Translations under genes and position numbers: made by a program
Source of the DNA: a virus
Lineage: Duplodnaviria; Heunggongvirae; Uroviricota; Caudoviricetes
IMG/VR virus record: IMGVR_UViG_3300021387_000463
Coordinates: 107,001-171,000 of that record
Length of the DNA stretch: 64,000 bases
Reading direction: 5' to 3' (one strand)
Shown here: positions 3,876 through 61,908 of the stretch, piece by piece
Position numbering within the stretch: position 1 is the first letter of the stretch
How the letters are laid out: the number at the start of each line of letters is the position of its first letter
The notes under the pieces: model-generated
What the model was told of the DNA's origin: nothing
The model's database searches: none
What the model saw: the letters and a program-made list of their open reading frames with translations, nothing else

Positions 3876-3909
3876 CAAAAAGGAATCTTGCAGCAATAGG
3901 TAAGACATC

Positions 3910-3979
3910 AGACATGTAGCTCAATGGTTAGAGCCTTGGATTTTACCAAGAGATTAGGGTTCGACTCCCTACGTATCTT
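3910..3979 (+). tRNA. tRNA-like with 6-nt anticodon loop auuuua (UUU or UUA)
   Basis: canonical D arm ta-gctc-aatggtta-gagc and T arm taggg/ttcgact/cccta; anticodon stem cttgg/ccaag encloses only 6 nt; acceptor has 1 mismatch. Confidence 0.35.
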
Positions 3980-4007
3980 TGTTTAAAAGGATTCCGATTT
4001 TTAACAT

Positions 4008-4081
4008 GGTGGTTGTAGCTCAGTTGGTAGAGTACCAGATTGTGGCTCTGAGGGTCATGGGTTCGAATCCCATCTTCCACC
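4008..4081 (+). tRNA. tRNA-His(GTG)
   Basis: loop ttgtggc; extra 5' G(-1) opposite C73, typical of tRNA-His; T arm atggg/ttcgaat/cccat. Confidence 0.55.
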
Positions 4082-4096
4082 CAAAAAATTGTTACG

Positions 4097-4279
4097 ATGG
4101 TAAAAGTATTAAATAAAAACATAGCTAGATGCTCAAGATGCAATTGCCTTTTGGAATATAATGCATCTGACATTGAAGAGAAAGAATGCGGATATAGTGT
4201 TCAATCATACGCTGGAGAAACATATATTGGAAAGTTTATTACTTGTCCAAACTGTGGAAATAAATTTGAAGTGTCTTGA
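4097..4279 (+). CDS. small zinc-ribbon protein (60 aa)
   Basis: CSRCNC...CPNCGN paired CxxC motifs. Confidence 0.45.
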   Translation: MVKVLNKNIARCSRCNCLLEYNASDIEEKECGYSVQSYAGETYIGKFITCPNCGNKFEVS

Positions 4280-4298
4280 ACACATTTTTCTAAAAAAA

Positions 4299-4330
4299 TT
4301 TGGAATTTAAGATTTTTTTATATATCTTTG
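4299..4330 (+). promoter_or_regulatory. Bacteroidetes-type promoter feeding the tRNA/TACAGCAA unit at 4361
   Basis: aaTTTGgaatttaagatttttttataTATCTTTGca. Confidence 0.5.
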
Positions 4331-4360
4331 CATAGTATTTCATAGGCAACAAATACACAA

Positions 4361-4487
4361 GGAAACATACAGCAACTATTAAAGGTATAGCATTAAACTG
4401 ATAATTTAAGGGTCGTTGGTTCGAGTCCAACTCACGCTACCAAGGTTGGCGTGATAGCTAAGATGGATAGAATGTTTCCGATTTTTT
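4361..4487 (+). ncRNA. permuted/split tRNA-Ile(GAT) unit inside a TACAGCAA element
   Basis: 5' ggaaacatacagcaa (4361-4375); D-stem 3' strand tagc; anticodon arm ttaaa/ctgataa/tttaa; variable gggtc; T arm gttgg/ttcgagt/ccaac; acceptor 3' tcacgct-a-CCA (4431-4441); 5-nt linker aggtt; acceptor 5' ggcgtga (4447-4453) + ta + D-stem 5' gcta; 3' aatgtttcc gattttttt (4468-4487). No matching 5' acceptor upstream in normal order. Confidence 0.4.
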
Positions 4488-4564
4488 TAGGGGAGTGGGC
4501 CAGAGGTCAACGCCGCTTGCTTTGGGAGCAAGTTTTATCGCAGGTTCGAATCCTGTCTCCCCTA
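4488..4564 (+). tRNA. tRNA-Pro(TGG)
   Basis: acceptor aggggag/ctcccct; anticodon stem cttgc/gcaag with loop tttggga; T arm gcagg/ttcgaat/cctgt. Confidence 0.5.
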
Positions 4565-4616
4565 CAACTTGATGTAAATCAATAAATTACATAAACGGTG
4601 TAAATTGTTTTGAATT

Positions 4617-5600
4617 TTGGCTGATTTTTATGCGAGTTCGACTCTATATTATATAGAAATATGTAATTATATGGATGAATTAACAAAAAAAATCAGAGAA
4701 TTAAAATTTGAAAAGGGGTATTCAAATAGTCAAATTTCAAAAGAATTGGGAGTAACAATAGAAAAAGCAAAAAGAGTTACTTGTAAAAGATATGATGAAA
4801 CATTAAAAAAGAAGGAAATTAGAAAAAATGCTGAAAAAGAATTTGTTGATTTAGTAAAACGATATTTACCATTGTCTAATTCTTTAAATCATTTATGTAA
4901 CAATTTAGGGTTGAGAGGTGTAGACGGATATTATAAGAAACTAAAACGAATAATATCAGAATATAATCTATCTACTGAACATTTTGGTACTATTAAAATT
5001 AGCCGATTTGGTGTAGCTAGAAACAAAGTAACCGCAATGACGGACGAAGAATTTTTTGTAAAAGGTTCTAAACGTAGCGGAGACTCAATAATTAAAAGAT
5101 TAATTGAAGGTGAATATAAAGAATATAAATGTGAAAATTGTGGTATAAGTGAGTGGGATGGAAAACCATTGAGGCTGCAAGTCCACCATATAAACGGAGA
5201 CCATAACGACAATAGAGTTGAGAACATTCAGTTATTATGCCCAAATTGTCATGCACAAACTGACACATATGCAAGGCATAACACTACTAAGAATGGTGGG
5301 TTTGTTGTTAAAAACATTGAAGAGCTAAAAGATAGTATTAATTATGTCAAGCCAAAATATTGCAAAAAATGTGGCAAAGAAATAACTAATGGCAGTAATG
5401 AATATTGTTCTCATGAATGTGCTCAAAAAGCCTCTAGAAGATTTGAAGTATCATCAGCACAGTTGATAGAAGACTTCAAAGAACTTAAATCATTCACAGC
5501 AGTAGGTAGAAAATATAATGTTAGCGATAATGCAATAAGAAGAAGAGTTAAAAAACTTGGAGTATATGAAGAAGTAAGACAATTTATCACTCCAAGGTAA
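4617..5600 (+). CDS. HNH homing endonuclease with zinc ribbon and C-terminal HTH
   Basis: HHINGDHNDNRVENIQLLCPNCH HNH motif; CKKCGKEITNGSNEYCSHEC zinc ribbon; C-terminal YNVSDNAIRRRVKKLGV. Confidence 0.7.
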   Translation: MADFYASSTLYYIEICNYMDELTKKIRELKFEKGYSNSQISKELGVTIEKAKRVTCKRYDETLKKKEIRKNAEKEFVDLVKRYLPLSNSLNHLCNNLGLRGVDGYYKKLKRIISEYNLSTEHFGTIKISRFGVARNKVTAMTDEEFFVKGSKRSGDSIIKRLIEGEYKEYKCENCGISEWDGKPLRLQVHHINGDHNDNRVENIQLLCPNCHAQTDTYARHNTTKNGGFVVKNIEELKDSINYVKPKYCKKCGKEITNGSNEYCSHECAQKASRRFEVSSAQLIEDFKELKSFTAVGRKYNVSDNAIRRRVKKLGVYEEVRQFITPR

Positions 5601-5975: not shown

Positions 5976-6069
5976 GGGAACTTACAGCAAGGTTAAGAGG
6001 ATAATTTTTTATTTGTTCAAAATGAAAATAGATAGTTCGAGCCTATCAAATGATAGTTCCCTTTTTTTT
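5976..6069. repeat. TACAGCAA element copy with internal T-arm-like hairpin
   Basis: gggaacttacagcaa (5976-5990); hairpin gatag/ttcgagc/ctatc (6031-6047); complementary agttccc (6055-6061) + ttttttttt. Confidence 0.4.
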
Positions 6070-7403: not shown

Positions 7404-7476
7404 CTTTTGAAAATAATTTGTCTTTCGAGACACATTTTTTGCTCTTTTGAAATATTTATATGTAAAGAGCTATATT

Positions 7477-8169
7477 ATGGAAATTGATATAAAAAGTGTT
7501 TTAGATAAATCAAAAACAATAAGTGATATTGCTAGAATAATTTTTGGAAAGCCTAACTATACAAACAGAGAAAAATGCAAAAAAATTCTTTCTGAGTATG
7601 GAATTGATTGGGAAAAATGGTTAGAAGAAAAAAAGATTAAGCCTAAGAAGTTTTGTCTTAATTGTGGGAAGGAAATAATTAATGGCGATTCTAGAAAAAA
7701 ATTTTGCAATTCATCTTGTGCAGCATCTTATAACAATTTAGGTATCGCTAGAAACTATAAAGGTGGTAAGAGAAAGGATGAAAAATCTTATTGCTTAAAC
7801 TGTGGTAAAGAAATAAAACGAGGTAAATTTTGTAATAATACTTGTCGTGCAGAATATAATGCAAAACAATATATTGAACGTTGGAAAAGAGGTGAAGAAA
7901 GTGGGTTAAAGGGTAAGTATGGCATTGCTTCTGCTGTTAGGCATTATATTTTTGAGAAAAACGAAAACAAATGTGAAATTTGTGGAAAAAGTTATGTAAA
8001 TCCGTATACTGGGTTGTCTGTTCTTCAAATTCATCATAAGGATGGCGATTGTACAAATAATAGAGAGGAAAACTTACAGTTATTATGTCCAACACATCAT
8101 GCAATGACCGAGAATTTTGGCAGTAGAAATCCAAATGCCACAAGAAAGGATAATAGAATGAGATATTAA
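7477..8169 (+). CDS. HNH homing endonuclease with two zinc ribbons
   Basis: HHKDGDCTNNREENLQLLCPTHH; CLNCGKEIINGDSRKKFCNSSC and CLNCGKEIKRGKFCNNTC; start moved to the internal Met after the promoter-like region. Confidence 0.65.
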   Translation: MEIDIKSVLDKSKTISDIARIIFGKPNYTNREKCKKILSEYGIDWEKWLEEKKIKPKKFCLNCGKEIINGDSRKKFCNSSCAASYNNLGIARNYKGGKRKDEKSYCLNCGKEIKRGKFCNNTCRAEYNAKQYIERWKRGEESGLKGKYGIASAVRHYIFEKNENKCEICGKSYVNPYTGLSVLQIHHKDGDCTNNREENLQLLCPTHHAMTENFGSRNPNATRKDNRMRY

Positions 8170-8604: not shown

Positions 8605-8679
8605 CGGTGTATCCCCTCTGCCTTATACGCTGTTGAAAGGGTAATTGGTCACATGTGGGTTCAAGCCCCACCATCGCCA
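8603..8679 (+). tRNA. tRNA-like (good acceptor/T arm, non-canonical body)
   Basis: acceptor agcggtg/catcgcc (6/7 paired); T arm gtggg/ttcaagc/cccac; no clean D or anticodon arm found. Confidence 0.3.
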
Positions 8680-8722
8680 CGAAAAGAAAGTTCTTTCGTC
8701 TGACGGTTTACGTCAATAACAA

Positions 8723-8869
8723 GGAAACATCCAGCAAATACAGAGTTGTTATTAGAAATTGCTACCGAAACGGTATGTGGGTTCGACTCCCACACGTCTA
8801 TCTTAACGAGGGCGTTGGTGAAATTGGTATACACGGCTATTGTAGAACAAAATGTTTCCGAATTTTTTT
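8723..8869. repeat. TACAGCAA element copy with internal T-arm hairpin
   Basis: ggaaacatccagcaa (8723-8737); internal gtggg/ttcgact/cccac; complementary atgtttcc (8852-8859) + gaatttttttat. Confidence 0.4.
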
Positions 8870-8924: not shown

Positions 8925-9377
8925 ATGAATAGCAAATTAGAGTATATAAAGGAAAATTTGGATATTATCAATGAAATGATTAAAGATAATAGACCTAAGT
9001 TTGAGATAGCTAGGATTTTGGGCGTTAAGTATGATACATTAAATAAGAATCTTAAGCTATTAGGAATTGAGTATGCAGGTAATCCAAACAGAAAAGGAAT
9101 GAAACATGAGGATGGTAAAATTTCTGCATATGAATACTTAGGTACTAACAAATTTATAACTGCTCCTAAACTAAGAAATAAATTAATAGAAGAGGGTATC
9201 AAAGGGGAAATATGTGAAAGGTGTGGAAATAGTACCTGGATGGGTGAGAAAATACCATTAGAGTTACATCATATAAATGGAAATCACTATGATAATAGAT
9301 TAGAGAATTTACAAATTCTATGTCCGAATTGTCATATGCAAGTACATGGTTATTCTAACACTAAGCACAAAGAATAG
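8925..9377 (+). CDS. HNH homing endonuclease (150 aa)
   Basis: CERCGNS...HHINGNHYDNRLENLQILCPNCH. Confidence 0.7.
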   Translation: MNSKLEYIKENLDIINEMIKDNRPKFEIARILGVKYDTLNKNLKLLGIEYAGNPNRKGMKHEDGKISAYEYLGTNKFITAPKLRNKLIEEGIKGEICERCGNSTWMGEKIPLELHHINGNHYDNRLENLQILCPNCHMQVHGYSNTKHKE

Positions 9378-10095: not shown

Positions 10096-10274
10096 CGAAT
10101 GCGGTTCGAGTCCGCTTCAGTGACCGAGATTAGGTAAATTCAACAAAGCAGTGTTCGATTCTTGCTTATCTCCACACTATGAGTTTCCAATGTTAACTCG
10201 TGGGGATTATGGTTAAGTTGAGGTCAAAAAAACGGTGTATCTAGGATGCCCAGTTGCGCCTAGCTGCATCAGTA

Positions 10275-10430
10275 GGAACGTACAGCAACATTTACTTATT
10301 TAAAAGATTTTGTATTAGATTCGTAAATGAGGATAAGAGAAGCACTAAATCATAATTGCGAGGCACTTATCCATGCTCTTCGGAGCAAATGTCTAGTCAT
10401 GACAGTAAATTGACCGTTCCTTTTTCTTTT
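10275..10430. repeat. TACAGCAA element copy (no tRNA body)
   Basis: ggaacgtacagcaa (10275-10288) ... complementary cgttcc (10415-10420) + tttttctttt; interior has the UUCG hairpin gctc-ttcg-gagc. Confidence 0.35.
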
Positions 10431-12981: not shown

Positions 12982-13069
12982 GTTTGGATGGCCGAGTGGT
13001 TTAAGGCAGCAGGCTGTTAACCTGCCGTGTGGTTTCGCTACACCATAGGTTCGAATCCTACTCCAAACG
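12982..13069 (+). tRNA. type-II tRNA (Ser/Tyr-like D arm, long variable arm) with anticodon GTT
   Basis: D arm tg-gcc-gagtggtttaa-ggc; anticodon stem gcagg/cctgc with loop ctgttaa; variable hairpin gtgt...acac; acceptor gtttgga/tccaaac. Confidence 0.4.
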
Positions 13070-13075
13070 CAATTA

Positions 13076-13158
13076 GGAGGCTGAGAGCACTGGAGAATAG
13101 TGTGCTATGCCATTGTTGAGGTGAGCATAGAAGATGGGTTCGATTCCCATAGCCCCCA
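13076..13158 (+). tRNA. tRNA-like (acceptor and T arm good, anticodon arm replaced by a 6-bp stem with 14-nt loop)
   Basis: T arm atggg/ttcgatt/cccat; acceptor ggaggct/agccccc; ctatgc...gcatag stem. Confidence 0.3.
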
Positions 13159-13339
13159 CTCCCAGACGTGGGTCTCAAACAACACTCAAAGATGTACATA
13201 TGAGTGGCTAGAGTTGTTAGACTGTGAAGTGGGACGAAGTAACCCACAACGTTAGCCATACGTCCGTTCAAGGTAGCAGCCATTTTATCTAGCCGTAAGG
13301 AAGCACTAAGCCAACGATACTGCTGCTGTGCATTGCTTG

Positions 13340-13410
13340 GGTCATGTAGTGTAACGGCTAGCACTTCACATTTGCAATGTGACAGAGGGGTTCAAATCCC
13401 ACATGTATCC
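13340..13410 (+). pseudogene. tRNA-Ala(TGC)-like pseudogene/fragment
   Basis: D arm and anticodon arm tcaca/tttgcaa/tgtga present; T stem weak; acceptor strands do not pair. Confidence 0.25.
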
Positions 13411-13426
13411 ACTTAATGTACACAAT

Positions 13427-13517
13427 GGAGGTGTACTCAAATTGGTGAAGAGGACGGTCTTGAAAACCGTTAGGTCGGTGATGAGTCGGCATGGGGGTTC
13501 GAATCCCTCCACCTCCG
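13427..13517 (+). tRNA. tRNA-Ser(TGA), type II
   Basis: anticodon stem acggt/accgt with loop cttgaaa; acceptor ggaggtg/cacctcc; long variable arm. Confidence 0.6.
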
Positions 13518-13543
13518 CAAGTTTAACTCATAAATTGAGAATA

Positions 13544-13939
13544 ATGGCAAAGAATATACACTTCAATATTAGTGAATATCGTAATATCTTTTGGATTATA
13601 GCTTCTGACAAAGAGAGTGGGTTATGGTATGGCACATTGACAGCAAGCTATGATGTCGAATATAATAGATATAAGCATCTTTGCAATGGCGATAAGATGT
13701 TGAAGATTGTTCGACTAGAAACAAGTCCAAATTATGTTGGAGAAGGTATTGCAAGTTCGTTGATGAATAAGTTCATTGATTATTATAAAGATTACAATAT
13801 GTATCTTCTTGTAAGTCCACAAGCACGAGAAAAGGACACTCTCAGGAGTGTAACGGATTTGAAGAAATTCTATGAGAAGTTTGGATTCCGTAAAACTGGA
13901 GAATTACTTCCAACGATGATTAGAAAGGCAACAATATAA
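13544..13939 (+). CDS. GNAT-family N-acetyltransferase (131 aa)
   Basis: C-terminal ...VTDLKKFYEKFGFRKTG resembles the GNAT acetyl-CoA binding/beta-bulge region; start trimmed to the Met after the tRNAs. Confidence 0.45.
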   Translation: MAKNIHFNISEYRNIFWIIASDKESGLWYGTLTASYDVEYNRYKHLCNGDKMLKIVRLETSPNYVGEGIASSLMNKFIDYYKDYNMYLLVSPQAREKDTLRSVTDLKKFYEKFGFRKTGELLPTMIRKATI

Positions 13940-15153: not shown

Positions 15154-15225
15154 GCTCCTATGGCAGAAGGGATTATGCACCAGACTCTTAATCTGGCTAT
15201 CAAGGTTCGAGTCCTTGTGGGAGTA
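15154..15225 (+). tRNA. tRNA-Lys(CTT)-like second copy
   Basis: anticodon stem ccaga/tctgg with loop ctcttaa; T arm caagg/ttcgagt/ccttg. Confidence 0.45.
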
Positions 15226-15951: not shown

Positions 15952-16088
15952 GGGTACACACAGCAAGTATAAATTTACACTTCAAACAGACTGTCAATTT
16001 GTGTAACGTGGGTTCGATTCCCACCCCCTCCGCAAAGAGAATTAAATAAACTGGAGGGGTTGAAATGTTGGTTTTATGTACCCTTTTA
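15952..16088 (+). ncRNA. permuted/split tRNA-Asp(GTC) unit inside a TACAGCAA element
   Basis: 5' gggtacacacagcaa (15952-15966); D-stem 3' strand ttca; anticodon arm acaga/ctgtcaa/tttgt; T arm gtggg/ttcgatt/cccac; acceptor 3' cccctcc-g (16025-16032); 20-nt linker; acceptor 5' ggagggg (16053-16059) + D-stem 5' tgaa; complementary tgtaccc (16076-16082) + ttttat. Confidence 0.4.
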
Positions 16089-16166: not shown

Positions 16167-16293
16167 GGTGACGTAGCTCAGTCGGTAGAGCACTAAAAAA
16201 TCAACGTGTTGCCTCGTGTGCGCAACCCACAGCAAATATTATGATGAATGGCTGTTAACCAAGGGGTCTGTGGTTCGAGTCCACACGTCACCG
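16167..16293 (+). tRNA. oversized tRNA-like gene (127 nt) with ~75-nt insertion after the D arm
   Basis: perfect acceptor ggtgacg/cgtcacc; canonical D arm ta-gctc-agtcggta-gagc and T arm tgtgg/ttcgagt/ccaca; insertion carries gcgcaac-CCACAGCAA and gctgttaacc. Confidence 0.35.
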
Positions 16294-18006: not shown

Positions 18007-18669
18007 ATGATAGCTGCTTTTGATACATATTATTATAATGGATATTCTTATACTGTAGCTGGAGTATTTAAGTCATGGAATGATAAAGATATTGCTTACT
18101 ATGCTACTAGTAAGAGGATGTGTATTGACGCAGAATACAAACCAGGAGAACTATATAAGCGTGAGCTTCCATGCATTATGCAATGTTTGGCATTATTACC
18201 ACTTAAGGATATTACGCTTATTATGGTAGATGGTTTTGTATGGCTTTCTGAGGATGGTAAAACCTTAACGAAGGGTTTGGGTGCTCACCTTCAAGATGCA
18301 ATCTTTAAGAAATATGGTGAGAAAATTACTGTTGTTGGTGTCGCAAAGAACAGATACCATGTAAATATACCAGATTGCTATGATATAGAGCGTGGTTTGG
18401 AATCAGCAAAGCCATTGTTTGTAACATGTAGTGAACACTGTCTTGCAGAACATTATTCAAACATGGTCAAGATTATGTATGGTGATTATAGAATACCAAA
18501 AATCTTGAAAGATGTAGACACTAGGACAAGAGAACTTGGGCATGAACATTCTGAGGAGATAGAAGCAGAACTTGAAAAAGAATATAACTCCAAACCCATA
18601 GATATATCAATTGGTGATTTTGATGAATTTATGGCAACTTGTGAAAAAAATGGTTTTAAATATAGATAG
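18007..18669 (+). CDS. nfi: endonuclease V (deoxyinosine 3' endonuclease; also cuts inosine-containing RNA)
   Basis: RELP, MVDGFVW, GLGAHL and VVGVAKNR align with E. coli Nfi blocks REYP, FVDGHGI, GVASHFG and IGVAKKR. Confidence 0.6.
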   Translation: MIAAFDTYYYNGYSYTVAGVFKSWNDKDIAYYATSKRMCIDAEYKPGELYKRELPCIMQCLALLPLKDITLIMVDGFVWLSEDGKTLTKGLGAHLQDAIFKKYGEKITVVGVAKNRYHVNIPDCYDIERGLESAKPLFVTCSEHCLAEHYSNMVKIMYGDYRIPKILKDVDTRTRELGHEHSEEIEAELEKEYNSKPIDISIGDFDEFMATCEKNGFKYR

Positions 18670-21088: not shown

Positions 21089-21230
21089 GGAAACAGACAG
21101 CAATGGTTATTTTTTTAATAAGCCTTGTAAGCAGTGGGTCATGGGTTCGAATCCCATCGAGGGGTGTAAGCTCCTTGTAGCTCAGTCTGGTCTAGAGCAA
21201 CTTAAAATGTTAAAAACGTTTCCGATTTTT
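21089..21230 (+). ncRNA. permuted/split tRNA-like unit inside a TACAGCAA element
   Basis: 5' ggaaacagacagcaa; T arm atggg/ttcgaat/cccat; acceptor 3' cgagggg-t; 5-nt linker gtaag; acceptor 5' ctccttg (all 7 pair, 2 G-U) + complete D arm ta-gctc-agtctggtcta-gagc; 3' acgtttcc gattttt. Confidence 0.35.
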
Positions 21231-22163: not shown

Positions 22164-22237
22164 GTTGATGTAGCTCAGTAGGTTAGAGCACGTGACTGAT
22201 ACTCACGAGGTCAGGGGTTCAACTCCCTTCATCAACA
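22164..22237 (+). tRNA. tRNA-Ile(GAT)
   Basis: perfect acceptor gttgatg/catcaac; anticodon stem cgtga/tcacg with loop ctgatac; canonical D arm. Confidence 0.65.
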
Positions 22238-22780
22238 CAAAACATAATGGGCTTGAATGGTATAGAACGTTATGCGTCTGGTAAAGGACAAGCAGTGGGC
22301 ATACACTTCAAATAGCAAAAAAAACAAACGCAGAGAACGTAGATTCTCCTGCTTATGAGTACGCTATAGCTGCGTAAGCATGAGCCGAGAGGCTAGGCTC
22401 TTAGGAACAGAACATCCTAGCAAACTTTTTTTAGCTTCGTGCTAGATGGTGGAATCGGTGACTCTAGTCATCCCCCAAGTTTTCCTTGTTTTCTCAAAAT
22501 AAGGTGGCGGATTTTCGACAGCAATGTCAACTTTCCAATTTAAGCTTGTATAATCCTTTATGGGATGGTAATTGTGACGAGGGTTCGAATCCCTCCAGGT
22601 CCACTTAATAATCAGTCAGGGTTGGATGATGAAGTAAACTTTTACAGTAAAGTTATGCTATATTAGGATAAAAGTCATGTATTAATCTGTATAACATACA
22701 TGGAAGGGAATCTTTCATAAGTACATTGAAGAGGTTCGTGTAGCTGATTATTTTATAAAAGAAAAAAAGTTCTTTGAAAA

Positions 22781-23088: not shown

Positions 23089-23332
23089 TGAAAAAAAGTT
23101 CCTAAAAAATTTGGAATTCTCGAAAATTATCTATATCTTTGCAAAGTGAAAAGAAATAAATGAGGAAACTAACAGCAAACATTTAAACATCAAACTGTAA
23201 ATTTGAACAACGTTTAAAAAGTTTCCGTTTTATTATATAACATAGCGGCAGAGTGAAACAGATTACACGCTAGGCTCATAACCTAGAAACACCAAGTGCG
23301 ACTCTTGCGTGCCGCCACTTGATTTGGAAGAT

Positions 23333-23617: not shown

Positions 23618-24440
23618 AACATTGTAGGCTTCGGCTGAAAATGAGGAGTTTGGCTAGCTTTCGTAGCCAAATGAAGGATAATCCAGTGATGGGACTAAAT
23701 GTGATGTGAAATTGACCATAGTAGCATTGCAGATATGTAGGGGCAACCCTATGTATTTCACTGAAAAGCATATGGCACGGTCTACGCTGGGGGTAACACC
23801 CTAGGCGTAGGTTCTCAAGGGCTGAATGTCTTTGAGTGAGTGGTAACACAATAGATTGCCATATGGAACTCGATGCAATAGTCACCAGTTGGCGTGTTGG
23901 GTTCAGTTATATGCTAGTCTCAAGTTGAAATGCTTGAGAACCGTAAGGCTGATAGTATGTAATAGCAATTGGACTTGTGGTGAGTCTTTGTAGGGAGGCG
24001 ATTTCGTGGGTCGTGCTCAAAAGGCACGAATGCGATGGGTCGCACCTCGTCTTCCAATGGTCGTGCAAATTTCCAAAATTTGATTTGAAATATGGTTCAA
24101 ATGTTTATTTAGCAAAAGTGTGCGACACTAGGCAGCTAAAATGCACTTATCCTTCTGCAATATGAAGGGGTTGGGGACTCGCAAGGAATCCAACAAGAGA
24201 GTAAAAGTACTCGTCTGAGTCAACAGGAGGCATCCTGTGAATCCGCAAGAGCTTGGCGAAGAACTGAAATCTATGATGCTGTACCGAAAGGTTTAAACTA
24301 GTAAGTGTTTGGTTGTTTTCGCAAAACCTCCGTGCATGGTGTCTACGGCTATCGTAAGGTAGCGTGTGAACAGCAACGTCCAACCGTTGTGAAATGACAT
24401 CTACAACAAGACAATGTTCTCAGTCTTTTGTTTTTACATA

Positions 24441-24564
24441 GGGAGTTAGCTTAATGGTCAGAGTAATTTTGTTGCGATTTAAGCTACAACACAGTCTCGA
24501 CTTCGGAACAGATTGATGCTTTAACTGATAATGAAAAAATGGTGGTTCGAGTCCATCACTCCCT
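24441..24564 (+). tRNA. oversized tRNA-like gene (124 nt)
   Basis: acceptor gggagtt/cactccc (6/7); T arm ggtgg/ttcgagt/ccatc; body contains ctgataa (Ile-type loop) and a UUCG hairpin. Confidence 0.3.
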
Positions 24565-24725
24565 GCGTACCGTTTTGGGGCACTTTTTGAGTAAACAAAG
24601 TGTTAAACTTTGGCACTAGATAGCTACTAGGTGTTATGGGTTGGAAAGTTTGAATCCCTTGGGGGTTTGTAGAATGTAATGTTTTTAACCAACTGTTTTT
24701 GATACGGCTTAATATTTAATTATAT

Positions 24726-25616: not shown

Positions 25617-25677
25617 AGGAAGCTTACAGCAATGTAAAAAGACCGCAACTCTTGGCCTAAGACTAGCTTCCGATTTT
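25617..25677. repeat. TACAGCAA element, minimal copy (no tRNA body)
   Basis: ggaagcttacagcaa ... complementary agcttcc + gattttt. Confidence 0.4.
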
Positions 25678-27141: not shown

Positions 27142-27226
27142 GGGCATATGGCTGAGTGGTCGATAGCGGCAGTCTCTAAAACTGTTATGGCGAAAGTCAT
27201 CGTGGGTTCGAATCCTACTATGCTCA
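27142..27226 (+). tRNA. amber suppressor tRNA, anticodon CTA, type II (Ser/Leu/Tyr-like body)
   Basis: acceptor gggcata/tatgctc all paired; D arm tg-gctg-agtggtcgata-gcgg; anticodon stem gcagt/actgt with loop ctctaaa at the expected position; long variable arm; T arm gtggg/ttcgaat/cctac. Confidence 0.5.
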
Positions 27227-27454
27227 CTACGGCTGGTGTATCCATAGTGGATGCTGAAATAAGTGAGACAGCGCAAGCCATGTAAGAAGTGGCAGATGAA
27301 GCAGCAATGCGGTGCGAGGATTAGTCCCTTGCCCTAGTTCCTTGATGGTTAAGAGGATACCTTCATGGTTGATACAGGTAAACCTAATTTACTATTATGA
27401 TAGAATATCTCAAAAAATTAGAAGCAACGATGTGCAAGCATAAATGGGAGGATT

Positions 27455-39413: not shown

Positions 39414-40010
39414 ATGATAATCGGTTCAACTAACTCCTTAACATATAGCCGCCCAAGCAGTTGGTGGCACAATATGCTATGGTGGCGTACTAGACACCAA
39501 GAAGTAGACTATGAGCTACAATATAGGTTCTATGGTGTAAGATTATTCGAATTCAAATTATACGTAAACAAGAATAAACGAATAGTAGTTAGAAGTGAGA
39601 ATGCGATATACTCTATATTCTCATTCTATGAGATATTGGATTTCTTCAATAAGATGGGTGATGTAACTCTTTTAATTACTCTCAATGAAACACTTGATGA
39701 ATACATGTTGGATTATAATCATGCGATTGAGAAGAAGTTTATAGAATCTTGTCGTATTATGGAAACCATCTACAAAGATATAATGTTTTGTGGAGGCTAT
39801 AGAGAATATGATGAAAAGCAGTTATATGAATTTGAATGGGAAAAGAAGAATGGCATGCCTAACATACTAGCTCCAGATGACTGGTCAGTAGCATATAGAT
39901 TTGTTCAGAAATGGTGTCCATTCCTACTCAAGAAGCTCAATAGGTACTACATTAAGAAATATGAGTATTTCAAAGGATTCTTAATGCTCAGTTACGTAAA
40001 CAGACGTTAG
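39414..40010 (+). CDS. hypothetical protein (198 aa)
   Basis: ORF. Confidence 0.5.
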   Translation: MIIGSTNSLTYSRPSSWWHNMLWWRTRHQEVDYELQYRFYGVRLFEFKLYVNKNKRIVVRSENAIYSIFSFYEILDFFNKMGDVTLLITLNETLDEYMLDYNHAIEKKFIESCRIMETIYKDIMFCGGYREYDEKQLYEFEWEKKNGMPNILAPDDWSVAYRFVQKWCPFLLKKLNRYYIKKYEYFKGFLMLSYVNRR

Positions 40011-40021
40011 GAATATTTATA

Positions 40022-40141
40022 TTAGGGGATAGTGTAATGGTAACACGCTGTAATTTCCGTTACCTTTGAGGTAACATTACAGCAATCATTAGGAAAATAG
40101 CTTTTGGTGCCAGTATTGGAGGTTCGAATCCTTCTCCCCTA
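40022..40141 (+). tRNA. oversized tRNA-Gln(TTG)-like gene (120 nt) with insertions flanking the anticodon arm
   Basis: perfect acceptor tagggga/tccccta; D arm ta-gtg-taatggtaa-cac; anticodon arm gttac/ctttgag/gtaac; preceded by gtaatttccg and followed by ATTACAGCAA; T arm ggagg/ttcgaat/ccttc. Confidence 0.35.
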
Positions 40142-40148
40142 GCAAACA

Positions 40149-40234
40149 TGGCGAGGTGCCAGAGTGGACAATTGGGGCACTCTCATAAGGTGTTAGTTTC
40201 GGCTACCGTTGGTTCGAATCCAACCCTCGCTACC
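40149..40234 (+). tRNA. type-II tRNA with anticodon CAT and encoded CCA
   Basis: acceptor ggcgagg/cctcgct; D arm tg-cca-gagtggacaat-tgg; anticodon stem gcact/ggtgt with loop ctcataa; variable arm; T arm gttgg/ttcgaat/ccaac; a-cca. Confidence 0.4.
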
Positions 40235-40235
40235 A

Positions 40236-40344
40236 AGGGAACTTACAGCAAGTATAACTCGTGAAGGAATGGTCTACTTGAAAGTCTAAAAAACTTTTGC
40301 GCAGTTTGCGCTTGTGGGTTCGAATCCCACCGAAAATCAGTTCC
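40236..40344. repeat. TACAGCAA element copy abutting the CCA end; internal T-arm hairpin
   Basis: gggaacttacagcaa (40236-40250); gtggg/ttcgaat/cccac; complementary agttccc (40338-40344). Confidence 0.35.
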
Positions 40345-40859
40345 CTAACTTATACTTAACCATAAGGTTTTAAGTTTTTGTATTATTTTATTTTTATCGA
40401 AAGGAGCATCCAGCAATGGGTGCTCTGATTTTTTATGCAACTTGATGTAAATCAAAGGTCTGATATAAATCAAGATTGAGCGTGATTTTTATGTTTTTTC
40501 TTGGAATATTTTGGGTATTTGAGTTTTTTTTAATATCTTTGCATCGTTAATCAAAAACAGTGTGTTCGCACACAACTTAAATTGACATAGGTCAAATAGT
40601 GGTTAGTTTTTCATAAAAAATGCATTTTGAATGATTGACATTGTGGCGTTTGGTTATATATATTAAATGAAGTGCAAGACCAAATGTATGAGCAACGGCT
40701 TGGGAAATCAATAGTCTAGGCTAATTTGTAAGTAAGTGCATTGTGGTTGGGTATCGGTTAAAATTGGAGGAAGTAAGTGTACCGATTTCGGCCACAATTA
40801 ATTAAAAGTGAGAAGTAAGTAAAATAAGTAAGTGTAAAATTAAAGAAAGGGAAATTATT

Positions 40860-57186: not shown

Positions 57187-58581
57187 ATGGAAATATTCAA
57201 AGACGAAAGAATAAAGAAAGTCTTAGCGAAGATTCAGAATGCCATTAAACTGACTGCCTTTGAGGGGCATGTTTATGTGGTTGGTGGTGCGGTGAGAGAC
57301 GCACTGTTGAACCTTCCAGTCAAGGACTTGGATTTCGTGGTAGAGATACCTAATGGTGGAGTAATGCTTGCCCATCTTCTTGCTTCAAAGGAGAAGTGTT
57401 ATGTGATGGGTAAGAATCCAGTAATATTCGAGACCTATGGTACTGCAAAGCTGAATCTCTTTAAGGATGAAGACCTCAAAGACTTTGACCTTGAATTCGT
57501 TCAGACTAGAAAGGAGCAGTATCACAAGGAGAGCAGAAACCCAGATACAGTGTTTGGTTCAATCGAGGAAGATGCAGCACGTAGGGACTTAACCATTAAC
57601 TCATTGTACTACAATGTTACTGATGGTAAGTTGTACGATTTCAACCAAGGTGTTGATGACTTGGTTAACCAAGTGATTAAGACCCCAACTGACCCAGATG
57701 TTATCTTTGACGATGACCCACTACGTATCTTGAGAGTTATCAGATTCTCTTGCAGATATGGCTGGGGTATCGAGAAGAACACTTGGTTGGGCATGGTTAA
57801 GAATGCACATCGTATCAAGATTATCTCACAAGAGAGAATCACTGATGAGATTTCCAAGATTATAACTGGTCCAAACGCTTCTGTTGGTATCCGCAAGATG
57901 TTGTTCTGTGGCATCTTGAATAGGGTAATGCCAGACATCTACGACTTAACCAACGCATATGAATCAAAGAATCCAATGCTTACCTCATTTGACCACACAA
58001 TGTTAGTTCTTGATAAGGTACAGCCTTATATTGAGAATAGACTTGCTGCATTGTTTCATGATGTAGGTAGAATCGCAACTGAGGGAAATAGGGGTATCTC
58101 TCAAGATTCATTCAGTGCTGATGTTGCTAGCTGTGACTTGAAAGCGATGAAATTCCCAAAGAATATTATCAATTCTGTTGAGAACGCAATCAAATATCAC
58201 AGATTCTTCAGAAACTACGCTGATGGCACTGTTCCACCAGACAAGAAGATAAGAAAGTTTATCAACGAGTGTGGTGACAACATTGGAAACGTGGTTGACT
58301 TGATGAATGCTAACAACTTGTATCAGACCTACGATAAGAAGAAGAGACAAGTATTGGATATTCTGAATAGAATTGAAGAGCTAGATGAGCTTGAAGAGGC
58401 TAAGAACGTTAAGCTGCCTATCGATGGAAAAGATTTAATGGCAGAATTTAATCTTAAAAGTGGCCCTCAGATTGGTATACTCATGGAACACTTGAAAGAG
58501 GCTTATTTCGAGAATCCGAAGATTACCAAGGAAGAGTGCTTCAAGTTGGTTGAGGATAAGATTAAAGTCTTGGCAGTCTAA
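57187..58581 (+). CDS. cca: CCA-adding enzyme (tRNA nucleotidyltransferase, class II) with HD domain
   Basis: VVGGAVRDALLNLPVKDLDFVV head-domain motif; RDLTINSLYY; HD motif LFHDVGR. Confidence 0.7.
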   Translation: MEIFKDERIKKVLAKIQNAIKLTAFEGHVYVVGGAVRDALLNLPVKDLDFVVEIPNGGVMLAHLLASKEKCYVMGKNPVIFETYGTAKLNLFKDEDLKDFDLEFVQTRKEQYHKESRNPDTVFGSIEEDAARRDLTINSLYYNVTDGKLYDFNQGVDDLVNQVIKTPTDPDVIFDDDPLRILRVIRFSCRYGWGIEKNTWLGMVKNAHRIKIISQERITDEISKIITGPNASVGIRKMLFCGILNRVMPDIYDLTNAYESKNPMLTSFDHTMLVLDKVQPYIENRLAALFHDVGRIATEGNRGISQDSFSADVASCDLKAMKFPKNIINSVENAIKYHRFFRNYADGTVPPDKKIRKFINECGDNIGNVVDLMNANNLYQTYDKKKRQVLDILNRIEELDELEEAKNVKLPIDGKDLMAEFNLKSGPQIGILMEHLKEAYFENPKITKEECFKLVEDKIKVLAV

Positions 58582-60515: not shown

Positions 60516-60992
60516 ATGGAGAAATTGACGATAGATGTATTCAGACATTTTAGGTTTTTCTTGAAAAAGAATAAACAGTATGACTTGTTCATGCGAAATT
60601 TCAGAAGACAGCCATTTCAGATTTATCACGTATTTGATTCGAAGATTCCGAATTACATACAGATAATGATGAAAGATTCTGTAGATGGGATTGGAAATCG
60701 ATACTTCAAGGAATTCGGTGCAATGCATCTTATCTTTAGGTCATTTAATTGGTCTGGAGATTGTTGCACAACCAAAACAAATTCGAAGCATTGGGCTACG
60801 GTTGGTCTTAAATGGGCGTTATATTGCATAAGGCATAACATCGACATATGCACAGATGAACGGCTTGGGAGACTTATAGAGTATTGGAATTCTAATGGAT
60901 GGATTAATATTAGCAAGCTATCCTTTGAAGATAAAATAATAGTAAATCAGTTAAAACGAAAATATAATAATTATGGGGTTACAAGTGTATGA
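60516..60992 (+). CDS. hypothetical protein (158 aa)
   Basis: promoter-like tcgtatctttaca upstream. Confidence 0.5.
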   Translation: MEKLTIDVFRHFRFFLKKNKQYDLFMRNFRRQPFQIYHVFDSKIPNYIQIMMKDSVDGIGNRYFKEFGAMHLIFRSFNWSGDCCTTKTNSKHWATVGLKWALYCIRHNIDICTDERLGRLIEYWNSNGWINISKLSFEDKIIVNQLKRKYNNYGVTSV

Positions 60993-61908
60993 TAAGATTG
61001 ATACAATCTATAAAAGATACCAGTTTGATGGTAAGGATTGTCCAAATAAGGATTGGTTAAAGTTCAAGAATAAGATTATTCTTGGTGAGTTCTCAAACAA
61101 GGAGGCTGAGTATCTGTTCAACTGTCTTTGGGAAGCATATAGTAAGTTAGACGGAACAAACTCTAAAATTGCATTCTTCCCCTCAACTAGTGAGATTCGT
61201 GTTGAGGGTAAGACCGAGAAAGCTCAGTCACAGCATGGACAGTTCGAAATGCTTGAGAAGATTGGTGAGCGTATCAAGCCACAGCTTTGCGCAATGTTCC
61301 CAAAGGAGTCAGCAAGGTTTGCTCCAGTTAAAGAGGGAAATAAGGTTCAGTATTATGCAACTAGGGTTGAGTATGCAACGGCATTTAATCCTATAGTTGA
61401 TTTTAAAAAGGCAGAACCTACTGCCAATGGATTGTATGGTGTTCAGCTAGAGGAAGTTCCTATATACATCTACGGTGAGTATTTCGGTACTGGTATTCAG
61501 AAGTATGGTTCTCGCTACATTCAGAATGGTAACGGTTTCCGTGTATTCGACATTAAACAGCAAGGTTGGTGGTTGCCAAAGGAGAATCGTGATGCAATGT
61601 GCAAAGGTCTTGGTCTTGAGACTGTGCCTTTCTTGGGTGTTATGACCTTGCGTGACATTGAGGATATGGTACGTAAGGGCTTCACTACCAAGTTTGAGGG
61701 AGCTGCTGACCCAACAATGCTTGAGGAGGGTATTGTAGCACGTCCCATCATTCCTCTTTACAGTGGCAATGGTAGTTCCACTCGTGTCATCGTTAAGGTG
61801 AAGTACTGTGATTACGTTGAGTATGATGCTGTACGCAAACAATTCTCTGATAAGGAGTTCACTGAGTTCGACACTTGGTATCATGAGAATATCGAAAGTA
61901 AAAAATAA
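60973..61908 (+). CDS. RNA ligase (Rnl2-like ATP-dependent nucleotidyltransferase)
   Basis: motif I KLDGTN (adenylylation lysine, cf. T4 Rnl2 KIHGTN); motif IV-like EEGIVARP; motif V-like RVIVKVKY. Confidence 0.55.
   Translation: MGLQVYDKIDTIYKRYQFDGKDCPNKDWLKFKNKIILGEFSNKEAEYLFNCLWEAYSKLDGTNSKIAFFPSTSEIRVEGKTEKAQSQHGQFEMLEKIGERIKPQLCAMFPKESARFAPVKEGNKVQYYATRVEYATAFNPIVDFKKAEPTANGLYGVQLEEVPIYIYGEYFGTGIQKYGSRYIQNGNGFRVFDIKQQGWWLPKENRDAMCKGLGLETVPFLGVMTLRDIEDMVRKGFTTKFEGAADPTMLEEGIVARPIIPLYSGNGSSTRVIVKVKYCDYVEYDAVRKQFSDKEFTEFDTWYHENIESKK

Follow-up and report, generated by a model that had tools for sequence, protein, structure and literature searches.

A permuted tRNA-like element in a phage tRNA array belongs to a large family of structured RNAs with a shared terminal handle

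Does a permuted arrangement of tRNA parts inside a phage tRNA array encode a decoding tRNA, or an RNA of another kind? We interrogated this question at positions 4361-4487 of a 64,000-nt stretch of phage DNA (the whole of which we call the window), a locus that a preliminary description had read as a circularly permuted or split tRNA-Ile(GAT) gene. Reading the sequence by string position, we found all of the elements listed in that description, and its permuted topology stands: the 3′ three-quarters of a tRNA, a short loop, and the 5′ acceptor and D-stem strands follow one another inside a terminal helix. Specifically, the body of 4361-4479 is in circularly permuted tRNA order, with the acceptor stem shut by a 9-nt loop and followed by the 5′ D-arm strand. 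The features of the locus are listed below.

4299-4330, + strand: putative Bacteroidota-type promoter, a conserved block about 30 nt upstream of the RNA
4299-4302, + strand: TTTG, putative promoter −33 element, 20 nt from the −7 element
4323-4330, + strand: TATCTTTG, putative promoter −7 element (TAnnTTTG), in the conserved block
4361-4368, + strand: GGAAACAT, 5′ side of the bracket (string position in the window)
4361-4367, + strand: GGAAACA, 5′ strand of P1, the helix of the family handle (covariation across 80 distinct members)
4368 with 4472, + strand: T4368 and A4472, optional eighth P1 pair (sequence)
4369-4375, + strand: ACAGCAA, invariant single-stranded motif (family conservation)
4376-4392, + strand: linker with a D-loop-like AAGG (the Rfam tRNA model aligns 4378-4391 to the D arm)
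4388-4391, + strand: TAGC, candidate D-stem 3′ strand, upstream of the anticodon-arm-like hairpin
4392, + strand: A4392, A26-like, closing the linker
4393-4409, + strand: anticodon-arm-like hairpin TTAAA-CTGATAA-TTTAA (sequence, stem covariation)
4410-4414, + strand: variable loop GGGTC (Rfam tRNA alignment)
4415-4431, + strand: T arm GTTGG-TTCGAGT-CCAAC (Rfam tRNA alignment, T-stem covariation)
4432-4454, + strand: loop-closed acceptor hairpin, 7 bp including a G.U (sequence, covariation)
4432-4438, + strand: TCACGCT, acceptor 3′ strand (sequence)
4439-4442, + strand: A-CCA in the acceptor loop, 3′ of TCACGCT
4443-4447, + strand: AGGTT, linker between CCA and the acceptor 5′ strand
4448-4454, + strand: GGCGTGA, acceptor 5′ strand (sequence)
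4455-4456, + strand: TA, tRNA positions 8-9 (sequence)
4457-4460, + strand: GCTA, D-stem 5′ strand (sequence)
within 4455-4471, + strand: AGATGGATAGA, D-loop-like, after GCTA (sequence)
4472-4479, + strand: ATGTTTCC, 3′ side of the bracket (string position in the window)
4473-4479, + strand: TGTTTCC, 3′ strand of P1 (string position, family covariation)
4480-4488, + strand: G-A-T7 tract separating the element from tRNA-Pro(tgg)
from 4489, + strand: tRNA-Pro(tgg), directly 3′ of the T7 run

The U-tract noted after the bracket is the T7 run at 4482-4488. The acceptor strands, described as exactly complementary, form six Watson-Crick pairs plus G1.U72, and A73 (A4439) could also pair with the U at −1 (T4447) to give 8 bp and a 7-nt loop. 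A local D arm in this copy would have only the 3 bp of GCTA..TAGA; otherwise GCTA would have to pair long-range with TAGC. The block at 4299-4330 is one that we take to be a promoter from the published Bacteroides consensus.

In its native order, 4361-4487 yields no tRNA call with ARAGORN, and three re-permuted joins of 4361-4479 are called as tRNA-Ile(gat). The Rfam tRNA model matches the locus partially, over model positions 10-63 with 31.2 bits, and an Rfam search returned no tmRNA-family match on 4361-4487. A composite pattern of the arrangement has two matches in the window against 0.00 expected in shuffles, which together with the covarying helices of its relatives indicates that the arrangement is not due to chance. 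The minimum free energy fold of the single sequence (−28.9 kcal/mol, with a z-score of only −1.7) differs from the cloverleaf-like fold (−20.1). Since folding of the single sequence does not recover the cloverleaf-like fold, we built the argument on comparative data. RNAalifold independently predicts P1, the anticodon-like hairpin, the T arm and the acceptor hairpin; the long-range D stem TAGC/GCTA is absent from its prediction. This D stem, proposed in the preliminary description, also shows no covariation among close relatives (the pairing is invariant there, so covariation is uninformative), and it is mismatched in the three copies (L080, L094 and L104) that have a full local D arm, GCTC-AGTTGGTA-GAG, at the equivalent of 4455-4471. 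Full local D arms occur likewise in L002 and L005.

We compared the locus with 13 distinct close relatives from independent metagenomes. The acceptor loop reads ACCA in only three of them and ACAA, GCAA or ACTA in the rest, and an encoded CCA is missing from 10 of the 13; the acceptor stem is CCTCCCC/GGGGAGG in 10/13. Anticodon-like loops in this subfamily include CTGATAA, CTAATAA, TTGATAA, TGAGGGA and a 6-nt CTGAAA. One relative (L089) has an identical ACCA acceptor hairpin, yet its loop is TGAGGGA, without U33; L094 and L104 have 6-nt anticodon-like loops, and L011 and L014 have AAT in place of GAT. The missing CCA, the drifting "anticodon" and the two 6-nt loops make a decoding tRNA-Ile function at 4361-4479 appear unlikely, so the locus does not hold up as the tRNA-Ile(GAT) gene of the preliminary description. 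The canonical tRNA-Ile(GAT) placed elsewhere in the window was recovered by ARAGORN at 22164-22238.

The same comparison bears on a functional two-piece tRNA-Ile(GAT), in which the acceptor loop would be opened by RNase P and 3′ trimming to leave a nicked cloverleaf that the acceptor stem, D stem and P1 keep in one piece and that would serve translation once charged, without ligation. Its appeal lies in features of this copy (an acceptor stem of 7 bp, A73, the encoded CCA, a U at −1, a canonical T loop and the CTGATAA loop) and in the example of two-piece tmRNAs, whose split tRNA-like domains can work. However, the absence of CCA from most relatives and the aberrant loops of L089, L094, L104, L011 and L014 all count against it, as does a D stem without covariation support. 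An 8-bp helix and about 30 unpaired nt would furthermore stick out of the D loop at the tRNA elbow, and the window already encodes the canonical tRNA-Ile(gat). We regard a charged two-piece tRNA as highly improbable.

Within the subfamily, four of the five pairs of the anticodon-like stem covary (variants that still pair include TTAGT/ACTAA, TTTGA/TCAAA and TAAAA/TTTTA), as do three of the seven acceptor pairs, with one additional one-sided change; hairpin loop sequence and length vary. These compensatory changes in two helices, in an arrangement kept by 13 distinct close relatives, speak against a non-functional scar, that is, two truncated tRNA gene fragments that remain after a tandem duplication and deletion within the array. 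The acceptor loop does resemble a tandem-tRNA spacer (trailer ACCAAGG, then U, then G+1), and the tRNA-Met at 40150-40232 ends in ...CCAACCCTCGCTACCAAGG, near the element's ...CCAACTCACGCTACCAAGG, making an origin by duplication plausible. However, no relative has an ordinary contiguous tRNA-Ile at this position, the flanking handle covaries and is common to at least 80 distinct members (see below), and the promoter block AAATTTGGAA..TATATCTTTGCA is conserved upstream of the element in L078, L080, L104, L069, L059, L101, L095 and L094; it also precedes a paralogue at window position 23164. Arrangement, helices and promoter block are thus all conserved. A scar is barely credible to us, and covariation appears to refute it effectively.

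The bracketing helix of the preliminary description is no peculiarity of the locus. Using the pattern GGAAACA..GGTTCGANTCC..TGTTTCC, we recovered 41 unique family sequences from contigs of phages and metagenomes, and a covariance model (R1) raised the set to at least 80 distinct sequences, including some with other P1 sequences. These relatives, from rumen, marine and freshwater phage contigs, always lie inside tRNA arrays of phage or metagenome contigs, and the 64-kb window contains at least 10 family copies, of which at least four are full and several short. The locus is one copy of a large, apparently undescribed phage small-RNA family: our literature searches, which covered permuted tRNAs and Y RNAs of phages, decoys resembling tRNAs, and introns in phage tRNA genes, turned up no description of it, and the handle matched no ribozyme or other Rfam family at E up to 10. 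A blastn search of 3900-4900 against GenBank phages gave generic tRNA-His and similar matches and no close relative, and an exact search with the 42-nt junction matched a single contig. Across bacterial and archaeal genomes (185,579 species), a pattern specific for the GGAAACA form of P1, a strand that varies across the family, gave 18 matches, none with CAGCA.

Six of the first seven P1 pairs change on both sides among 80 distinct members, and pairs 1-6 have no unpaired cell (variants include GGGTACA/TGTACCC, GGATGCT/AGCATCC and ACAATCT/AGATTGT). The bracket ggaaacat...atgtttcc is present as described, and only seven of its eight pairs are conserved across the family. Compensatory changes occur family-wide at 7/7 pairs of the acceptor hairpin and 3/5 pairs of the T stem; 94.5% of cells are paired, versus 71.5% in shuffles and at most 57% with slid partners. 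The motif CAGCA lies within the first 20 nt of all 80 distinct members. ACAGCAA occurs 26 times in the window, where 10.8 ± 3.4 are expected, and 25 of the 26 are on the + strand. The 10 nt before the P1 3′ strand are 52% A in the family versus 32% overall, and a run of four or more T lies within 12 nt downstream in 38/80 members. The handle comprises the 7-bp P1 formed by the two ends of the RNA, the ACAGCAA that directly follows its 5′ strand, and the A-rich stretch that precedes its 3′ strand. A DNA-level inverted repeat (an inverton or att site) was also considered and dropped: the repeat spans just 7 bp, only one side has the neighbouring motif, and the covariation is like that of an RNA helix.

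The handle carries different cargoes. Some are tRNA-like bodies whose acceptor stem is closed by a loop and whose break lies in the D loop, at 26/27 or 29/30, or in the anticodon loop; some short members carry just a bare anticodon-like hairpin (Pro TTTGGGT, Tyr CTGTAAA and Asp CTGTCAC loops); and in an unpermuted tRNA at 16167-16293 the handle module is an insert. This last tRNA is open-ended; its positions 28 and 29 are separated by 54 nt that include the handle's stem and ACAGCAA, and deletion of the insert leaves a perfect tRNA-Asn(gtt). In many members the anticodon-like loop is well formed, with 7 nt, U33 and R37. In a brute-force deletion and re-permutation of all members, ARAGORN never called members with acceptor stems shorter than 7 bp, and AT-rich linkers were too noisy for "complete cloverleaf" scoring.

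Permuted tRNA genes are known from Cyanidioschyzon merolae, other algae and Thermofilum. As in those genes, the 3′ part at our locus lies upstream of the 5′ part, a short linker joins the acceptor ends, the leader pairs with the trailer, and the re-permuted sequence is recognisable as a tRNA. In contrast, inspection of the leader/trailer junction found no bulge-helix-bulge: P1 is a simple helix of 7-8 bp, next to which lie ACAGCAA on one strand and A-rich sequence on the other, and no 4-bp helix bordered by 3-nt bulges is seen. The phage element also differs in that its anticodon and CCA drift among orthologues, and the family in that many members are unable to yield a tRNA. The splicing endonuclease is, to our knowledge, not known from bacteria or phages.

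These likenesses and differences frame the possibility of true permuted or interrupted tRNA genes, in which an endonuclease would excise the intron-like P1/ACAGCAA module, the phage RNA ligase would join the ends, and, for permuted copies, a circular intermediate would be opened by RNase P, 3′ processing and the CCA-adding enzyme to give, at this locus, a functional tRNA-Ile(GAT). The re-permuted ARAGORN calls and the perfect tRNA-Asn(gtt) speak for this, and the window encodes a CCA-adding enzyme (57187-58581) and an RNA ligase (PF09414; 60973-61908). Several members have discontinuous but complete 5-bp anticodon stems with canonical 7-nt loops, and acceptor loops start NCAA, a beginning shared by the 3′ trailers of 18 of the window's 39 tRNA genes. 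However, the would-be splice junctions show neither a bulge-helix-bulge nor other conserved structure, and both the insertion point (D loop, 26/27, 28/29, 29/30, 31/32) and its distance to the handle vary such that no measuring rule fits. Orthologues with 6-nt loops, loops without U33 and drifting anticodons are equally hard to accommodate, as are the many acceptor stems that have 4-6 bp or are closed by 3-4-nt loops and the short members without any tRNA body. The anticodon-like loops identified among window members (Ile GAT, Leu TAG, Thr TGT, Asn GTT, Pro TGG, Tyr GTA) all duplicate canonical window tRNAs. True permuted genes are improbable in our view. We grade just as low the idea that the module is a protein-dependent tRNA intervening element, present as an insert at 16167-16293 and as a split leader and trailer at 4361-4479, and removed by an endonuclease and the phage RNA ligase. 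If it were true, bacterial viruses would provide the first examples beyond archaea and eukaryotes both of permuted tRNA genes and of tRNA introns that do not self-splice; removal of the handle would amount to a new RNA splicing system.

The range of cargoes, which mimic Ile, Leu, Thr, Gly, Glu, Lys, Met and Asn tRNAs, may instead point to decoys for tRNA-targeting host defences (anticodon nucleases or other effectors), each member imitating one tRNA species while the handle stabilises the RNA or recruits a phage factor. Short members that show just an anticodon-like stem-loop, the many copies within phage tRNA arrays, and the tRNA-repair toolkit of RNA ligase and CCA-adding enzyme encoded nearby are consistent with this. 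However, a specific anticodon-nuclease decoy should conserve its loops, and those of the Leu-like group read ATTAGAA, ATTGTAA, AAAAGGA and GAATGGG, with similar variation in the subfamily of this locus; nor did our literature search find a description of such RNAs. Decoys are an unlikely explanation.

Two other known systems resemble the element in part. In two-piece tmRNA (permuted ssrA, Rfam RF04321 and related), a permuted tRNA-like domain has its acceptor ends joined in the precursor and opened by processing, and the paralogue at 15952-16083 has weak partial matches to permuted-tmRNA models. The phage element, in contrast, is without a tag reading frame and without pseudoknots, and ARAGORN found a single standard one-piece tmRNA in the window (22249-22604). 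The stable RNAs C and D of T4 (species 1 and 2) are, by analogy only, also small, located among phage tRNA genes and co-processed, and RNA C ends in a T-arm-like hairpin. As homologues they were rejected: model R1 does not match them, and they have no P1/ACAGCAA handle.

The closest likeness is to YrlA (RF02553; Chen et al. 2014, PMC4201824). Bacterial and phage YrlA Y RNAs are permuted tRNA mimics, which the preliminary description passes over in naming only a few algae and archaea for permuted tRNA genes. In YrlA, too, the 5′ and 3′ ends pair as a terminal stem, the order is T arm, loop-closed acceptor stem and D arm (clear at this locus for the T arm and acceptor hairpin, its local D arm having 3 bp at most), the 3′ strand is A-rich, and genomes contain several different copies. 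In M. smegmatis, RNase P cleaves a YrlA whose acceptor stem has 7 bp, and CCA is added to it; the Rsr/Ro60-binding motif GNCGAAN0-1G sits in the 5′ strand of the YrlA stem (PMC4201824). The positional orthologue L002:3872-3995 aligns to the Rfam YrlA model at full length (34.5 bits, E 6.6e-6), eight other members score 34-44.5 bits, and, as a control, three Y RNAs adjoining phage TROVE/Ro60 genes score 37.9-47.5 bits. Family members and Ro60-adjacent Y RNAs thus match the model about equally well; all of these fall below the Rfam gathering score of 69 bits, and this locus scores 15.7 bits.

The phage family differs from YrlA in its handle, where the Ro60/Rsr motif is missing (GNCGAAN0-1G in the first 40 nt of 0/80 members) and an invariant ACAGCAA is present instead. 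This handle, unlike the YrlA stem, is also found on non-tRNA cargo and as an insert in otherwise normal tRNAs, with at least 10 family copies inside the tRNA arrays of one phage; and this copy differs from YrlA in having a full anticodon-like arm and in being opened in the D loop, not in the anticodon stem. By tblastn with human Ro60 and D. radiodurans Rsr, no TROVE/Ro60 gene was detected in the 64-kb window (related contigs are ~409 kb) or in the fetched flanks. The family was absent from the best 80 TROVE-encoding viral contigs listed, with 55 further TROVE loci existing.

Judged from sequence comparison, the family is real: its helices covary, its handle is constant and its cargo variable, and its architecture matches that of the YrlA class. 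On balance, we favour the reading of 4361-4479 as the gene for a structured non-coding RNA, about 120 nt long, that imitates a tRNA in the manner of Y RNAs, sits on a handle that binds a protein, and does not decode; RNase P nicking is possible. We propose that a Bacteroidota-type promoter of the element's own would drive one transcript through the downstream tRNA-Pro, and that tRNA-processing enzymes would trim it, the RNase P cut at the 5′ end of tRNA-Pro setting the element's 3′ end. The handle would bind a phage or host protein, and the tRNA-like cargo may engage the tRNA-binding machinery (enzymes of modification or repair, or nucleases, for example), comparable to the way in which Y RNAs link Ro60 with further factors. 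Since this copy has a 7-bp acceptor stem, a U at −1 and A73-CCA, RNase P nicking is plausible here, as in M. smegmatis YrlA. The product would be two RNA pieces joined by base pairing in the acceptor stem, in P1 and possibly in the D stem, and the phage CCA-adding enzyme could maintain the 3′ end.

The purpose of the big tRNA arrays of large phages is still debated. Scattered among these tRNAs is a hidden multi-copy family of tRNA look-alikes that standard tRNA finders and Rfam do not report, and its constant handle with varied cargo in several circular permutations suggests a ribonucleoprotein system built of modules. If the family is Y-RNA-like, it would carry the Ro/Y-RNA principle, in which a protein has a tRNA mimic attached, over to another handle and probably to another protein partner, and would connect with the ways in which phages control tRNA processing and repair or evade defences. 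Phage tRNA counts miss or partly mis-call such elements.

The U33/R37 loops and the perfect tRNA-Asn obtained by deleting the module, neither of which a pure Y-RNA model requires, count against such a model.

We interrogated the parts of the candidate permuted tRNA-Ile(GAT) gene at 4361-4479 (+). Every element that the preliminary description had placed within 4361-4487 was found.

Parts of the locus, as read from the sequence
4361-4368 (+), bracket 5' strand, GGAAACAT
4388-4391 (+), TAGC, candidate D-stem 3' strand
4393-4409 (+), hairpin TTAAA-CTGATAA-TTTAA
4415-4431 (+), T arm, preceded by GGGTC
4432-4438 (+), TCACGCT, then A-CCA-AGGTT
4448-4454 (+), GGCGTGA, then TA and GCTA (4457-4460)
4472-4479 (+), bracket 3' strand, ATGTTTCC, then a T7 run

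The acceptor strands TCACGCT/GGCGTGA, described as exactly complementary, form six Watson-Crick pairs and one G.U. ARAGORN makes no tRNA call on the locus in native order and calls tRNA-Ile(gat) once the 5' piece precedes the 3' piece; "permuted tRNA" is an accurate name for its architecture. The Rfam tRNA model matches at model positions 10-63 only (31.2 bits), and Rfam YrlA (Y RNA-like) gives a weak match spanning the T arm, acceptor hairpin and D region.

The locus is one copy of a family, not a one-off. Using the pattern GGAAACA N30-60 GGTTCGANTCC N35-65 TGTTTCC, we found two matches in the window vs 0.00 expected, and 13 viral and 74 metagenome loci in all; 41 unique pattern-matched sequences also share CAGCA directly after the first stem strand. 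Across 185,579 bacterial and archaeal genomes, the GGAAACA-specific pattern matched 18 times, with the CAGCA motif in 0/18. R1, a covariance model trained on those 41, adds many copies with other terminal-stem sequences, giving 80 distinct sequences in all. In their alignment, which was fitted to R1 and is biased toward the structure, the 7-bp terminal stem P1 shows both-sided changes at six of its first seven pairs and no mismatch in pairs 1-6, covariation is seen at 7/7 pairs of the acceptor hairpin and 3/5 of the T stem, and paired cells reach 94.5%, vs 71.5% when shuffled and no more than 57% once partners are slid. A MAFFT alignment of the original 41 agrees for the acceptor and T stems, and P1 variants (GGGTACA/TGTACCC, GGATGCT/AGCATCC, ACAATCT/AGATTGT) are visible directly in the raw sequences. 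After P1, N-ACAGCAA is essentially invariant (CAGCA in 80/80); A makes up 52% of the 10 nt preceding the P1 3' strand, and a T-rich run follows P1 in 38/80. This handle is undescribed in Rfam and in the literature found by searching. The window has 26 copies of ACAGCAA (10.8 +/- 3.4 expected), 25 of them on the + strand. A copy that may be there by chance lies at 22518-22524, towards the 3' end of the phage tmRNA (22249-22604).

We examined a subfamily alignment of 13 distinct close relatives of the locus. Three have TCACGCT/GGCGTGA as acceptor stem and ten have CCTCCCC/GGGGAGG, the changes being compensatory, and the anticodon-like stem keeps its pairing through changes at 4/5 pairs. ACCA occurs in the acceptor-hairpin loop only in the three TCACGCT copies, the loops of the others starting ACAA, GCAA or ACTA, and the "anticodon" loops read CTGATAA, CTAATAA, TTGATAA, TGAGGGA or a 6-nt CTGAAA; one relative (L089) combines TGAGGGA with an ACCA acceptor hairpin identical to that of the locus. 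Therefore, selection has kept the helices and not the features needed by a decoding tRNA-Ile, and the proposed identity as a tRNA-Ile gene is not supported. The proposed long-range D stem TAGC/GCTA is not supported either: it shows no variation, the three copies with a local D arm (GCTC-AGTTGGTA-GAG) mismatch it, and RNAalifold does not predict it. A positional relative, reached via the HNH gene next door (57% identical in protein), likewise lies upstream of tRNA-Pro and has ends GGAAACAC...ATGTTTCC as at the locus, a perfect local D arm, and an acceptor hairpin of 5 bp whose closing loop, ATAAAA, has no CCA; it matches Rfam YrlA over its full length (34.5 bits, E 6.6e-6). Separately, at 13015-13640 of the fetched locus L014, a tRNA-like gene (5' part GGGGAGGTAGCAAAGATGG, 3' part GGTGGTTCGAGTCCACCCCTCCCCACAA) with the acceptor pair of most relatives is split by ~590 nt, within which lie a complete tRNA (13045-13117) and an HNH-like reading frame; upstream of the gene is a TAnnTTTG promoter box.

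Within the window, the cargo on the handle varies.

Family members and related features in the window
3882-3995 (+), handle GGAATCT..GGATTCC with GCAGCAA around a whole tRNA-like cloverleaf, 6-nt anticodon loop
8723-8859 (+), second full member; handle GGAAACAT...ATGTTTCC as at the locus, with CCAGCAA; class II, Leu-like body opened in the anticodon loop
15952-16083 (+), full member, R1 77.7 bits; P1 GGGTACA/TGTACCC
21089-21223 (+), full member, R1 75.6 bits; Thr-like loop CTTGTAA, canonical D arm, opened at 29/30
2412-2489, 5976-6061, 10274-10421, 23164-23226, 25618-25671, 40237-40345 (+), probable short or atypical members, R1 low (19-40 bits)
16167-16293 (+), open-ended tRNA interrupted after position 28 by 54 nt (16195-16248), resuming at position 29
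24440-24565 (+), similar interrupted tRNA, ACAGTC in place of ACAGCAA
~40010-40140, probably a further interrupted tRNA

The tRNA-like body is opened at different sites: at 26/27 in L082, where the Lys-like anticodon arm and the D arm are both complete, at 29/30 also in L056:611 and L005:5263, and in the anticodon loop also in L002. The 8723-8859 member holds a D arm (GTG-AAATTGGTATA-CAC), a variable-arm hairpin (TACCG-AAA-CGGTA) and a relic loop ATTAGAA, with a canonical tRNA-Leu(tag) 520 nt downstream; the cargo at 15952-16083 matches permuted-tmRNA and beta-tmRNA models weakly and partially. The six probable short or atypical members pair perfectly over the 7 bp of P1 and carry T-ACAGCAA at the expected offset, with a slight or absent tRNA body. 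Those at 2412-2489 (loop TTTGGGT), 23164-23226 (TCAAA-CTGTAAA-TTTGA only) and 25618-25671 consist of handle plus a hairpin, often anticodon-arm-like; 40237-40345 has a T arm only. Inside 3882-3995, ARAGORN labels 3910-3979 "tRNA-??? (tt)", with like calls in L002 (5238-5310) and L014 (4363-4434). At ~8655-8685 (+), a stretch resembling a T arm and acceptor 3' strand (GTGGGTTCAAGCCCCACCATCGCCAC) draws no tRNA call from ARAGORN or Rfam; in L059 and L073 this 3' end directly precedes a family member.

In the interrupted tRNAs, the 5' anticodon-stem strand is broken by inserts of 54-65 nt, and Rfam recognizes 16167-16293 and 24440-24565 as tRNAs with long inserts where ARAGORN misses them. The insert at 16195-16248 contains P1 in hairpin form and, after it, ACAGCAA. 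One RNA design thus occurs in two forms: permuted members have a closed acceptor and an open P1, and the unpermuted, insert-bearing ones an open acceptor and a closed P1. The main rival explanation takes the handle as an excised intron-like module and the members as true permuted or interrupted tRNA genes; deleting 16195-16248 indeed leaves a perfect tRNA-Asn(gtt), and the phage encodes an RNA ligase (PF09414, 60973-61908), but junction sites vary among members, anticodon loops are degenerate, acceptor stems are short, and some members have no cargo.

The best-supported reading of the locus is a predicted Y-RNA-like tRNA mimic on a conserved, probably protein-binding handle. YrlA is a tRNA mimic whose T arm, loop-closed acceptor stem and D arm sit on a Ro60/Rsr-binding stem (Chen et al. 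2014, PMC4201824); in M. smegmatis its acceptor stem measures 7 bp, RNase P cleaves the RNA both in vitro and in vivo, and CCA is added (PMC4201824). As a control, we fetched TROVE-encoding viral contigs and sought tRNA-like modules beside the TROVE genes. At least 135 viral contigs carry a Ro60-like protein gene, and many of L108-L187 among them have a YrlA-type module no more than 1 kb upstream of that gene and in its orientation; none of these modules reaches the Rfam YrlA gathering score of 69. Three TROVE-adjacent modules score 37.9-47.5 bits and eight handle-family members 34-44.5 bits, likewise all under 69; given this overlap, the family resembles YrlA in architecture as closely as genuine phage Y RNAs do. 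The acceptor loop ACCAAG of one TROVE contig (L109) recurs at the locus. The Rsr motif GNCGAAN0-1G is found in 0/80 family members. No TROVE gene was detected in the 64-kb window or the fetched flanks, and no family-bearing contig is among the best 80 of at least 135 TROVE contigs; both results cover a minor part of each phage genome.

Upstream of the locus, a block with TTTG at -33 (4299-4302) and TAnnTTTG at -7 (4323-4330) is kept in eight relatives and before another family member; by the published consensus it is a putative Bacteroides-type promoter. The tRNA-Pro starts 9 nt past P1, so RNase P cleavage at its 5' end would set the 3' end of the ~4361-4479 RNA. RNase P may also nick this RNA into two pieces. 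Acceptor loops of many members start NCAA, as do true tRNA trailers, and the locus T arm plus ACCAAGG resemble the 3' end of tRNA-Met 40150-40232; both observations fit a possible descent from tandem tRNA copies.

The phage to which the window belongs is very large; the nearest contigs, of 409 kb and 412 kb, derive from rumen-metagenome phages. ARAGORN, confirmed with Rfam, finds 43 tRNA genes and a tmRNA, every one on the + strand. Among 39 tRNA 3' flanks, C comes next in 37 and CAA in 18, and CCA is encoded in only two (15154-15225 and 40150-40232, both +); most phage tRNAs therefore need CCA addition. A CCA-adding enzyme is encoded at 57187-58581. It and the RNA ligase belong to a set of RNA-handling and NAD-salvage genes (57187-58581, 60973-61908, 18007-18669, 41514-63840) that includes an endonuclease V-like protein, NUDIX, CinA, isochorismatase and NAPRTase. 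Among the tRNAs lie genes for HNH and DUF559 endonucleases (1525-2400, 4617-5600, 7447-8169, 8925-9377). The tRNA at 27142-27227 (+), labelled "Pyl" by ARAGORN, has anticodon CTA and is an amber suppressor; TAG may be a sense codon in some genes of this phage.
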